A program made the position numbers and the translations under genes. From positions 31,697 to 37,127 of the forward strand of contig JAHECP010000003.1 of the NCBI GenBank assembly GCA_024641665.1: 5,431 nt of DNA. The letters run 5' to 3'. This document shows positions 2,199 to 4,828 of the stretch, in pieces (positions within the stretch are counted from its first letter, which is position 1; each line of letters opens with the position of its first letter). The DNA comes from Acidobacteriota bacterium (lineage in GTDB: Bacteria > Acidobacteriota > Vicinamibacteria > Vicinamibacterales > JAHECP01). Under the pieces are notes generated by a model that was not told where the DNA came from, searched no databases, and worked only from the letters and a program-made list of their open reading frames with translations.

Positions 2199-3248
2199 AT
2201 GTACACCCCCCAAGTGTTCTCGATGGACGGTGTGGTGGTGGGCCAGAGCGCCCGGATGCGCGCCGTCTTCGACTTCGTGCGGGTCATCAGCGACAGTCAC
2301 AGCACGGTGATCGTCACGGGCGAGAGCGGCACGGGCAAGGAAGTCATCGCGAACGTCATTCATCAGGCCAGCCCGCGGCGCCATCATCCGTTCGTGCCGG
2401 TGAGCTGCGCGCTGTTCTCCGACACGCTGATCGAGACCGAGCTCTTCGGGCACGAGCGCGGCGCGTTCACGGGCGCGATCAAGGATCGGCCGGGGCGGTT
2501 CGAGCTGGCGCAGGGCGGCACGATCTTCCTCGACGACATCGACGACGTGCCGTCCTCGGTGCAGGTGAAGCTCCTGCGCGTGCTGCAGAACCGCACCATC
2601 GAGCGTGTCGGCGGGACGCGGACGATTCCGGTCGACGTCCGGGTGATCACCGGGGCGAAACGCGACCTGAAGCAGCTCGTGGCCGAGGGCCGGTTCCGCG
2701 AGGATCTCTACTACCGGCTCAACGTGCTGCCGATCGTGCTGCCGCCCTTGCGCGAGCGTCGCGAGGACATCCCCGTGCTCATGGAGCACTTCCTCCGCCG
2801 CTTCTTCCGGGCCCGCGGTGAGGACATGCCCGAGATCGCGCCCGTCGTCCGCCAGGCCTTCCTGCAGTATCCGTGGCCGGGCAACGTCCGCGAGCTCGAG
2901 AACGCGTGCGAGCGCATCGCGCAGACCTGCCAGTGCGGCACGGTGCGGGTGGGCTGCGTGGCGTCGAGCGTGCTGTTCCAGGGCGACGGGCGCGGGCCCG
3001 CGGAGGCCCCCGCCGAGGAGGATCTGGCGCCGGTCTCCTCCGGCCTGTCGCTCGACGAGCGGCTGCGCGAGGTCGAAGCCAACCTGATCAGCTGGGCGCT
3101 GCGCATGAGCACCGGCAACAAGTCGAGGGCCGCCGAGCTGCTGCAGATCAAGCGCTCGACGCTCGGCGATCGCATCAACCGATGCGGGCTGGGCAAGCTC
3201 GTCACCGACGGTGAGGCCGACACGGTGGCCGCCGGCAGCCTGTCGTGA
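2199..3248 (+). CDS. Sigma-54-dependent transcriptional activator A, AAA+ plus Fis-HTH only (no N-terminal regulatory domain)
   Basis: 349 aa. The AAA+ core begins about 15 residues after the Met. Motifs: Walker A GESGTGKE, canonical GAFTGA, Walker B IFLDDIDD, ERVGGTRTIPVDVRVITGAKRDL, FREDLYYRLNV, WPGNVRELENACERI, and HTH TGNKSRAAELLQIKRSTLGDRINRCGL. The start is 16 nt after the nfu-like stop and is supported by alignment with the paralogue N-terminus. Confidence 0.93.
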   Translation: MYTPQVFSMDGVVVGQSARMRAVFDFVRVISDSHSTVIVTGESGTGKEVIANVIHQASPRRHHPFVPVSCALFSDTLIETELFGHERGAFTGAIKDRPGRFELAQGGTIFLDDIDDVPSSVQVKLLRVLQNRTIERVGGTRTIPVDVRVITGAKRDLKQLVAEGRFREDLYYRLNVLPIVLPPLRERREDIPVLMEHFLRRFFRARGEDMPEIAPVVRQAFLQYPWPGNVRELENACERIAQTCQCGTVRVGCVASSVLFQGDGRGPAEAPAEEDLAPVSSGLSLDERLREVEANLISWALRMSTGNKSRAAELLQIKRSTLGDRINRCGLGKLVTDGEADTVAAGSLS

Positions 3249-3274
3249 CGCCCGGATGCCGGGAGGAGTCGAAC

Positions 3275-3679
3275 GTGAAGGAGACGCGGTACGGCCTCGG
3301 GATCGACGTGGCCACGGGATTCGATGAGACGGTCGGGCGCGTGACCGACGCGCTCAAGGCCGAGGGCTTCGGCGTGCTGACGACGATCGACGTGCAGGCG
3401 ACGCTGAAGCAGAAGCTGGATCGGGACTTCCGGCAGTACGTGATTCTGGGCGCCTGCAACCCCCACCTCGCCAGCCGGGCGCTGGACGCCGAGCTCGAGA
3501 TCGGGCTGCTGCTGCCCTGCAACGTCATCGTGTACGACCGCGGCGACGGTCGCACCGCCGTGTCGGCCATGGCGCCGATCCCGGCGATGGGGATCGTGGG
3601 CAACGAGACGCTGAAGGCGGTGGCCGTCGAGGCCGACGCGCGGCTGCGCCGCGCGCTCGGGTCGCTCGAGTCGAAGTAG
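3275..3679 (+). CDS. DUF302-family protein (function unknown)
   Basis: 134 aa counted from GTG 3275, which is preceded by a strong SD GGGAGGAG (3261-3268). Family-typical segments: YVILGACNPHLASRAL and LLLPCNVIVYD; the size is typical. An alternative in-frame GTG at 3245 would overlap the upstream TGA as GTGA, so the start is uncertain by 10 codons. Confidence 0.85.
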   Translation: MKETRYGLGIDVATGFDETVGRVTDALKAEGFGVLTTIDVQATLKQKLDRDFRQYVILGACNPHLASRALDAELEIGLLLPCNVIVYDRGDGRTAVSAMAPIPAMGIVGNETLKAVAVEADARLRRALGSLESK

Positions 3680-3823
3680 CCGCGGCCCCGCCGTCGCATC
3701 GGATGTCGACGCGCTGGAGGAGCGCCGGACGGCCCCGCGCCGCCCGGCGGCAGCGCCAATCGTAGCGACTGGCCCCGACCCGCCGCCGGGAGCGACCGGG
3801 CCTTCGAGTACTCGAGGACCGCC

Positions 3824-4828
3824 ATGCCGGATCGAGGTACCTTCTCCATCGACTCGGTCGTCGTCGGGCGCAGCCCTCGCATGCGCGCGGTGTTCGACTT
3901 CGTGCGCGTCATCGCCGACAGCGACAGCAGCGTGCTGATCACCGGGGAGACCGGCACCGGCAAGGAGCTGGTCGCCAACCTGATCCACTACTCGAGCGCC
4001 CGCCGGCACCGGCCGTTCGTGCCGGTGAGCTGCGCGATTCTCACCGAGACGCTGATCGAGTCGGAGCTGTTCGGCCACGAGCGCGGCGCCTTCACCGGGG
4101 CCATCAAGGACCGGCCCGGGCGCTTCGAGCTGGCCGAGGGCGGCACGATCTTCCTCGACGACATCGACGACATCCCCAGCTCGGTGCAGGTGAAGCTGCT
4201 GCGCGTGCTGCAGAACCGCACCGTGGAGCGCGTGGGCGGCACCCGCGCGATTCCGGTGAACGTGCGGGTGATCACCGGCTCGAAGCGCAACCTCAAGCAG
4301 CTCGTGGCGGAAGGGAAGTTCCGCGAGGACCTGTACTACCGGCTCAACGTGGTCCCGATCGTGCTGCCGCCGCTCCGGGAGCGGCGCGAGGACATCCCGA
4401 TCCTGACCGACCACTTCCTCGGCCGCTACTTCCGCGAGCGCGGGGAGGACCCGAAGCCGTCGGCCTCGGCGGTGCGGCAGGCGTTCCTCGGCTACGCGTG
4501 GCCGGGCAACGTGCGGGAGCTCGAGAACGCGTGCGAGCGGATCGCGCAGACCTGCACCTGCGACCAGGTGCGTCTGGGCTGCGTGCCGGCGAGCGTGCTG
4601 TTCCACCCGCAGCTCGAGGTGGCCGAGCCGGTCATCGAGATGAGCGCGCCGCGCCCGGCCGTGTCGCTCGACGAGCGGCTGGCCGAGGTGGAGTCGCGGC
4701 TCATCACCTGGGCGCTCAAGGTGAGCCACGGCAACAAGTCGCGCGCGGCGGAGGTGCTGAAGATCAAGCGATCCACGCTCGGCGACCGCATCAAGAAGCT
4801 CGGCCTCGATCACCTCGAAGTCAACTGA
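3824..4828 (+). CDS. Sigma-54-dependent transcriptional activator B, sensor-less paralogue of activator A
   Basis: 334 aa from ATG 3824, preceded by GAGGA (3814-3818). Motifs: Walker A GETGTGKE, GAFTGA, IFLDDIDD, RVITGSKRNL, FREDLYYRLNV, WPGNVRELENACERI, and HTH HGNKSRAAEVLKIKRSTLGDRIKKLGL. By hand count, 205 of the first 260 residues are identical to activator A with no gaps. Confidence 0.93.
   Translation: MPDRGTFSIDSVVVGRSPRMRAVFDFVRVIADSDSSVLITGETGTGKELVANLIHYSSARRHRPFVPVSCAILTETLIESELFGHERGAFTGAIKDRPGRFELAEGGTIFLDDIDDIPSSVQVKLLRVLQNRTVERVGGTRAIPVNVRVITGSKRNLKQLVAEGKFREDLYYRLNVVPIVLPPLRERREDIPILTDHFLGRYFRERGEDPKPSASAVRQAFLGYAWPGNVRELENACERIAQTCTCDQVRLGCVPASVLFHPQLEVAEPVIEMSAPRPAVSLDERLAEVESRLITWALKVSHGNKSRAAEVLKIKRSTLGDRIKKLGLDHLEVN

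Follow-up and report, generated by a model that had tools for sequence, protein, structure and literature searches.

To our knowledge, NifA is the one case in which cysteine-based sensing takes place on the AAA+ domain of a sigma-54 activator, and we know of no cysteine motif in PspF or HrpRS. The cysteine motif of NifA is a probable iron-sulfur (Fe-S) or metal site that is required for activation and not for DNA binding (PMC3854256; PMC10590331). Cysteine mutants of Herbaspirillum NifA still bind DNA and fail to activate (PMC3854256), and the identity of the metal centre was still given as unknown in 2023 (PMC10590331). Thiol-based sensing has also been described for Cupriavidus FisR, whose cysteines belong to the regulatory domain at the N terminus and lack conservation in A. 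baumannii FisR (PMC7315123). Here, we describe two paralogous sigma-54 activators, named activators A and B, which are encoded in a stretch of 5,431 nucleotides (nt) from an Acidobacteriota bacterium of the Vicinamibacterales (assembly GCA_024641665.1, contig JAHECP010000003.1, positions 31,697 to 37,127; hereafter the window). Both activators carry the cysteine motif C-x6-C-x-C-x6-C, and activator A follows, in the same operon, a gene for an Nfu-type Fe-S carrier (Table 1). Judged by the sequences compared below, the four cysteines are a strongly constrained hallmark of one discrete clade of sigma-54 activators. We see about an even chance that the site they form binds an Fe-S cluster, supplied or shared by the Nfu protein, which gates the activity of the activator.

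Likeness to NifA, PspF/HrpRS and FisR

Among the described systems, the four-cysteine family may most resemble NifA in its way of working, by analogy, although it is itself neither NifA nor FisR nor PspF/HrpRS. Both are sigma-54 activators in which four conserved cysteines are arranged around the sensor-II helix and the segment following it. The best solved-structure match of the AAA+ core is A. vinelandii NifA (9qq6, E 1e-79), just above FleQ and ZraR, and the best NCBIfam match is the NifA equivalog TIGR01817, at 349.5 and 356.1 bits, which is below its cut-off of 528.85. The sequence of S. meliloti NifA was recovered from pSymA and aligned to A and B; its cysteines occupy alignment columns 36, 48, 68 and 73, and those of A and B columns 49, 56, 58 and 65. 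In NifA, the motif C-x11-C-x19-C-x4-C brackets FPGNVRELEN, whereas A and B have C-x6-C-x-C-x6-C at the end of the lid. Thus, the parallel with NifA that was drawn in the initial annotation of the window is sound as regards the structural element, the sensor-II helix and lid end, and fails as regards the residues, since no cysteine position coincides. A and B differ from NifA also in the absence of its N-terminal GAF domain, in the dedicated Nfu partner found in one subtype of the family (the A-type, defined below) and in their occurrence in acidobacterial records. Moreover, no nif genes were found in any neighbourhood examined. Membership in NifA was rejected on the TIGR01817 score, the missing GAF domain and the lack of any shared cysteine position.

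In having no N-terminal regulatory domain and an adjoining small partner gene, the activators recall PspF (with PspA) and HrpR/HrpS (with HrpV), and HrpR and HrpS are, like A and B in the window, two paralogous sensor-less activators lying close together. The partner here, however, is an Fe-S carrier domain and not of the PspA or HrpV type. A and B were seen together on one contig only in the window's lineage, and an obligate A/B heterohexamer was considered and set aside as unsupported, the pairing being confined to that lineage.

FisR is likewise a sigma-54 activator with cysteines that contribute, in Cupriavidus, to signal sensing. Its cysteines are N-terminal and its targets are sqr/pdo, whereas A and B have no N-terminal domain, and neither sqr nor pdo was detected among the annotated neighbouring genes in related loci. 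A FisR-like mechanism was rejected on these two grounds, and the persulfide option of the initial annotation is the least supported of those it had raised. A metal-free thiol switch could also be conceived more broadly, at which disulfides, or persulfide or polysulfide bridges as in FisR, SqrR and CstR, lock or unlock the lid under oxidant or sulfane-sulfur stress. Two disulfides are possible from four close thiols, Cupriavidus FisR offers a precedent among sigma-54 activators (PMC7315123), and DUF302 and universal-stress-protein genes are found nearby. Yet the annotated neighbours in related loci also include no rhodanese gene, the cysteines of FisR do not lie in the lid, and four cysteines so strictly conserved, with unvarying distances between them, are more usual in a metal site. 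As such a switch would, in addition, leave the Nfu linkage and the Nfu fusions described below unexplained, we consider it distinctly improbable.

Four cysteines where the AAA+ lid ends

Pairwise comparison showed that activators A and B are 74% identical. In both, the domain Sigma54_activat (PF00158) covers residues 14-179 (E 1e-66 to 3e-68), the Walker A motif (GESGTGKE/GETGTGKE) and the GAFTGA loop (ERGAFTGA) are visible in the translations, and a C-terminal Fis-type helix-turn-helix (HTH) domain (PF02954) is present. Both open reading frames (ORFs) begin 12 residues ahead of the AAA+ domain and cannot be extended upstream; therefore, the earlier description of the two activators as sensor-less is correct, no domain being found before residue 14. 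The Walker B motif reads FLDDIDD (2526-2546 in A and 4151-4171 in B), with Asp replacing the catalytic Glu. This variant was found in 129/129 members of the four-cysteine family; most other activators read FLDEIG[DE], and a DD Walker B is common to a few response-regulator-type relatives without the cysteines, at ~50% identity.

Translation of 2907-2963 gives CERIAQTCQCGTVRVGCVA and that of 4532-4588 gives CERIAQTCTCDQVRLGCVP. With numbering from the starts at 2199 and 3824, both paralogues have their cysteines at residues 237, 244, 246 and 253, in agreement with the initial annotation, and four of the five or six cysteines of each activator fall within 17 residues. The nucleotide ranges that had been given for the motif peptides are right from the first to the last cysteine, and they leave out the 'NA' with which these peptides had been made to begin (2901-2906 and 4526-4531). 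The Pfam domain AAA_lid_14 covers residues 185-256/258, with all four cysteines inside it at its C-terminal end, and the variable linker (~261-283) begins only after the motif. The motif is therefore inside the AAA+ lid and outside the variable linker; it is the C-terminal end of the lid, with Cys237 in the sensor-II helix and the other cysteines after it. This replaces the earlier view at which the site occupied a separate junction between ATPase and HTH. In an AlphaFold2 model of A, built on a shallow alignment of 46 family sequences and of low confidence (mean predicted local distance difference test score, pLDDT, 51), a helix at residues 230-243 starts within GNVRELEN and carries Cys237. 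The neighbouring NtrC-type activator of the window reads GNIRELRNVVERAVLLAETERLG at the equivalent place and is Cys-free there, as previously stated.

Since A and B are 74% identical, their mutual conservation alone proves little, and it is the wider family that carries weight. The initial annotation had named loss of the cysteines from orthologues as an observation that would speak against a functional site. All four cysteines are kept in 119 of the 120 best homologues (70-100% identity). A metagenome scan, which used a DNA pattern fixing the first three cysteines and leaving the fourth free, gave at least 120 loci with 126 genes; the fourth cysteine is present in 125 of these 126 among the matches listed, and the remaining gene has an ambiguous base. 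When nine diverse C-terminal segments were aligned, 36 of the 119 columns proved invariant, all four cysteines included. In a second alignment, of 46 sequences, Cys237, Cys246 and Cys253 are invariant and Cys244 is at least 90% conserved. In fact, at most one of these 46 sequences has lost any of the four cysteines, while the linker adjoining them is highly variable. Furthermore, 1.84 billion representatives clustered at 50% identity were searched and the 150 best were examined for the motif. Among these 150, the motif occurs only in the few that are at least 59% identical and is absent from generic activators, which are at most 52% identical.

It could be argued that the cysteines have no special role and owe their conservation to descent alone, the family being young and its members closely related, as most listed members are at least 70% identical and A and B are themselves no further apart than that. 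Nonetheless, two proteins at 59-63% identity (P0125 and P0130) still have all four cysteines, the linker next to the motif varies highly where the cysteines are lost in at most one of 46 sequences, and two diverged subtypes of the family both keep them. Conservation by descent only is, to our mind, scarcely credible.

Apart from these comparisons, one protein, P0123 (469 residues, 67% identical to A), keeps only the first and second cysteines and is extended at its C terminus by ~130 extra residues; in this protein the site may have been lost naturally. It is also worth mentioning that activators of unrelated lineages (P0151, P0268, P0149, P0199 and P0208) have at least three cysteines within the 36 residues that begin with GNVRE, as in ILCRGEICGLEC and ATCNLEMLCGEC. 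Perhaps, the lid end is a recurrent place for cysteine motifs, beyond NifA and the four-cysteine family.

The named records of the family come from Vicinamibacterales, Acidobacteriia and 'Acidobacteria bacterium'. A scan of species genomes with the generic peptide WPGNVREL found, among the matches listed, one true family member (locus L004), and the plasmid collection held no family member, its best match being 46% identical. The family abounds in metagenomes, of which many are soil metagenomes, and a word-filtered homology search returned at least 8000 metagenome candidates, all at E <= 1e-20, of which most are probably generic activators. A and B belong to a large undescribed clade, so far met only in acidobacterial records, and searches of the literature for an activator-Nfu pairing or for the four-cysteine motif found nothing relevant.

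Coupling to an Nfu-type carrier and a candidate cluster site

The first gene of the operon had been recognised as an Nfu-type carrier with a CxxC motif, and the profile match to PF01106 and the CAGC sequence bear this out (Table 1). The CxxC of Nfu proteins holds a [4Fe-4S] cluster for transfer. With its PF01106 domain and CxxC, the partner resembles Nfu/NfuA; it differs in being a stand-alone protein of 74 residues, tied to a regulator operon under a sigma-54 promoter and sometimes fused to the activator. The database source names it 'Fe-S cluster biogenesis protein NfuA', and its scores are below the NCBIfam cut-offs for NifU and NfuA.

The linkage of nfu with the activator extends beyond the window. 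It was counted on the 76 metagenomic genes that have enough upstream sequence, and 57 of them have nfu on the same strand, 0-80 bp upstream, the gap between the nfu stop and the activator start having a median of ~7 nt. The Nfu partners are uniformly 74 residues long and CxxC is kept in 54/54. Two subtypes of activator can be told apart by the residue after the CxC. The A-type, with Gly, has nfu directly upstream in 52 of 53 assessable genes, and the B-type, with Asp, Asn or Ser, in 4 of 22; a single additional gene linked to nfu carries Trp there. At least two independent and divergent proteins, P0121 and P0130, are natural fusions made of an Nfu domain in N-terminal position, a linker of ~40 residues and the activator, and both score above the Pfam NifU cut-off. 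The fusion gene of P0130 was confirmed on its contig, beside another NtrC-type regulator and a DUF302 gene. Operon coupling and fusion together are the strongest new argument that Nfu and the cysteine-bearing activator work together.

One form that this cooperation might take is that of a detached sensor subunit, at which Nfu stays bound to the activator, with a cluster bridging its CxxC and the lid cysteines, and acts in the manner of PspA, HrpV or NifL, the partners of other activators that are sensor-less or controlled by a partner. The translational coupling across a gap of ~7 nt would suit such a role, and so would the invariant CxxC and the fusions, which put Nfu where other activators carry their sensor domain. 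However, B-type activators keep the cysteines mostly without an adjacent Nfu, four cysteines are already enough for a cluster, and the fusion P0121 has lost one cysteine of its CxxC, and we regard a permanently bound Nfu sensor as quite unlikely.

In the mechanism that we favour, the end of the lid, made up of the sensor-II helix (with Cys237 in it and Cys244 as its end) and the 10-residue segment with Cys246 and Cys253, would form the four-cysteine site. This site would bind an Fe-S cluster, most simply [4Fe-4S], which in the A-type the co-translated Nfu protein would deliver or share. By way of the sensor-II helix, the state of the cluster would act on ATPase activity or on the assembly of the ring. 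The site and the sensor-II arginine are six residues apart; a lost or oxidised cluster would therefore slacken the lid and end ATP-dependent activation, with DNA binding intact, as in the cysteine mutants of Herbaspirillum NifA. The sequences themselves show the motif and its conservation, the gene linkage, the promoters and the neighbours; metal binding, cluster type, signal, sign of the response and the pairing of activators with promoters are inferred. The initial annotation had supposed that the site replaces the missing N-terminal sensor. A sensor domain is indeed missing, yet replacement is too simple an account, as an upstream PAS kinase, response regulators and the NtrC-type activator probably also supply input, at the sigma-54 promoter before nfu, and as Nfu takes the N-terminal position in the fusions.

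Several observations weigh against a cluster that gates the activator. The spacing C-x6-C-x-C-x6-C matches no established Fe-S signature exactly. The [4Fe-4S] motif of endonuclease III/MutY, C-x6-C-x2-C-x5-C (PMC11138216), likewise places four cysteines in a span of 17 residues with x6 as its first interval, but this likeness is numerical only, fold and function being unrelated and the middle spacing being off by one residue. The AlphaFold2 model of A is poor, with residues 245-254 below a pLDDT of 50, and leaves convergence of the thiols unsupported. Moreover, the B-type genes keep their cysteines and yet are mostly without an adjacent nfu, the fusion proteins are singletons in the database, and P0121 is without the second Cys of CxxC. 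The Nfu of the operon may simply supply Fe-S clusters to the products of the regulon. Finally, a zinc or copper-thiolate site could also be made from two cysteines at i and i+7 on one helix together with a CxC.

Zinc deserves consideration in its own right, as it is very often the metal at invariant Cys4 sites. A Zn(Cys)4 site of structural role could staple the last helix of the lid to the start of the linker and serve to stabilise the fold only, regulation being achieved wholly by expression through the two-component and sigma-54 cascade. With a conserved sigma-54 promoter and an upstream two-component system already present, an extra sensor is not strictly needed, and the scarcity of adjoining Nfu genes in the B-type (4/22) would be in line with this. 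Zinc sites are, however, usually made from CxxC-type pairs and not from an i/i+7 pair and a CxC as found here. In addition, a structural zinc site leaves unexplained why the activator is coupled in an operon, and fused, with an Fe-S carrier domain of invariant CxxC. We judge it unlikely, and retain the gating Fe-S cluster as the working model.

Promoters, neighbouring genes and a possible regulon

Table 1. Features located in the window. Gene limits are from ORF translation and domains from Pfam and NCBIfam profile searches; positions are those of the window, and all listed genes lie on the plus strand.
Feature	Position	Strand	Basis or remark
NtrC-type response-regulator sigma-54 activator	330..1685	+	Pfam: receiver, AAA+ and Fis HTH; without the Cys motif
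Sigma-54 (-24/-12) promoter TGGCACGCTGGTTGC, TGGCAC-N5-TTGC, serving the nfu/activator A operon	1850..1864	+	Exact consensus match
Nfu-type (NifU C-terminal domain) gene, 74 residues, CAGC	1958..2182	+	PF01106, E 1.8e-24, 86 bits
Activator A, 349 residues, A-type (CxC-G)	2199..3248	+	AAA+ sigma-54 interaction domain followed by lid, variable linker and Fis-type HTH; N-terminal sensor domain absent
Four-cysteine motif of A, C237-ERIAQT-C244-Q-C246-GTVRVG-C253	2907..2957	+	Translation
DUF302 gene between both activators	3275..3679	+	PF03625, E 2.3e-25
Activator B, 334 residues, B-type (CxC-D), paralogue of A	3824..4828	+	Translation, Pfam
Four-cysteine motif of B, C237-ERIAQT-C244-T-C246-DQVRLG-C253	4532..4582	+	Translation
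Sigma-54-like promoter TGGTATCGGTGTTGC, TGGTAT-N5-TTGC, before a small conserved gene	4916..4930	+	Two mismatches to consensus
Conserved 149-residue protein (ORF6), family unassigned	4945..5394	+	ORF; homologues in related loci

Sigma-54 promoters were sought in the 300 nt upstream of nfu, a match being counted when at least 9 of the 10 consensus bases agreed. Such a match lies within ~100 nt of the nfu start in 45 of 47 related loci. Because neither the window nor locus L208 has more consensus matches, in raw number, than expected from shuffling, the argument for these promoters is drawn entirely from the conservation of their position across loci. The NtrC-type gene is present upstream of nfu also in L001-L004, L205, L206 and many metagenomic loci, and in distant loci a PAS histidine kinase, a single-domain response regulator and the NtrC-type activator are syntenic upstream. 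The NtrC-type protein of the window is likely the activator of the nfu promoter. Upstream of its gene, an 88-nt direct repeat was noticed (1-88 and 138-225, copies 99% identical), which may be a repeat element, a duplication or an effect of assembly.

The B-type activators appear in a different setting. Some of their genes have a sigma-54 promoter of their own, 30-76 nt upstream. In seven loci (L110, L143, L152, L163, L173, L191 and L199), matches to 9-10 of the 10 sigma-54 consensus bases are found ~1110-1210 nt after the activator start and are followed by a homologue of ORF6; six of these seven loci are B-type, and the promoter is ~100 nt past the activator stop. The homologues have ~150 residues and motifs such as LRRLF and GCAG.W.EK.F, and ORF6 itself has no match in Pfam or NCBIfam. 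As an ORF6 homologue follows the activator in 7 of the 14 B-type loci with enough downstream sequence, ORF6 is worth naming as a likely target on which the B-type activator acts directly. A recurring CGCCGAAA-like element was seen by eye before the ORF6 promoters, with no clear palindrome. In the window, an 8-bp inverted repeat (CGGCACGC / GCGTGCCG, at 4837-4844 and 4855-4862, with a 10-nt loop) comes after the stop of B and before the promoter at 4916; it could be a site bound by an activator or else a terminator stem that lacks a T-run.

Further neighbours were counted in loci whose downstream sequence reached 2.5 kb or more, 14 of the B-type and 20 of the A-type. B-type loci have genes for MtrA-like cytochromes in 9, an MtrB/PioB porin in 9, a radical S-adenosylmethionine (SAM) protein in 9, ORF6 in 7 and FeoB in 4. 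A-type loci have a universal stress protein in 9, a 73-residue Cys-rich protein in 6 and MtrA/MtrB in 2. Sigma-54-like elements were observed before genes for MtrA-like decahaem cytochromes, universal stress proteins, cytochrome c, a small membrane protein and a radical-SAM protein. Locus L205, a 2.1-Mb contig of a near-identical relative with an identical Nfu protein and the gene order of the window, extends past the point at which the window ends. There follow, in order, ORF6, a radical-SAM gene, a Crp/Fnr-family regulator, MtrA, MtrB/PioB and a second MtrA, and the stretch from the radical-SAM gene through the second MtrA-like decahaem cytochrome spans 13910-20225. In L205, weak sigma-54-like elements precede each of the two mtrA genes by 113-119 nt and the radical-SAM gene by 80 nt. 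As candidate targets, the cytochrome, stress-protein and radical-SAM genes fit a redox or iron signal.

Two other gene families were met in these neighbourhoods. A family of 73-93 residues (MLDREKVV...), with no Pfam match, is found in L099, L110, L143 and L198 at ~1.1-5 kb after the activator start, with strong sigma-54 promoters, and its copy in L099 carries a CCDACC cluster. The DUF302 gene is located between A and B in close relatives as well (L205-L207; at 11320-11724 in L205), and in L208 (7725-8120) it is 2.6 kb from a divergent Nfu-activator fusion gene. DUF302 matches were obtained in just five related loci among those listed; the gene is accessory and not generally conserved across the four-cysteine family.

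The promoters and neighbours could be joined into a cascade. In its first step, the PAS histidine kinase and the NtrC-type regulator would switch on the sigma-54 promoter of nfu and activator A. In the second, cluster-loaded A and B would activate sigma-54 promoters, with nearby universal-stress-protein and small-protein genes as the outputs of the A-type, and with the ORF at 4945, the radical-SAM gene and the genes for MtrA/MtrB-type porin-cytochromes as those of the B-type. More tentatively still, it is possible that Nfu and the four lid cysteines make up a dedicated Fe-S hand-off sensor, the activator being active only when a cluster is supplied or intact. Fe-S, O2 or iron status would then gate a three-tier sigma-54 cascade, from the NtrC-type regulator to Nfu and A and on to B, for the iron-costly MtrAB/PioAB-type machinery of extracellular electron transfer in soil Acidobacteriota.

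If this is true, an Fe-S carrier domain serving as partner or N-terminal domain of an activator would be a new way of coupling cofactor supply to gene expression, and the hand-off sensor would offer, for the first time, a tractable model of the metal centre in oxygen-sensitive NifA. The four-cysteine family may be easier to purify and study than NifA, as its members have ~350 residues, no GAF domain, a compact motif and a candidate cluster donor of their own. Moreover, adjoining as it does the MtrAB/PioAB-type porin-cytochrome clusters, the family may govern the redox metabolism of iron in a phylum that has been little studied.

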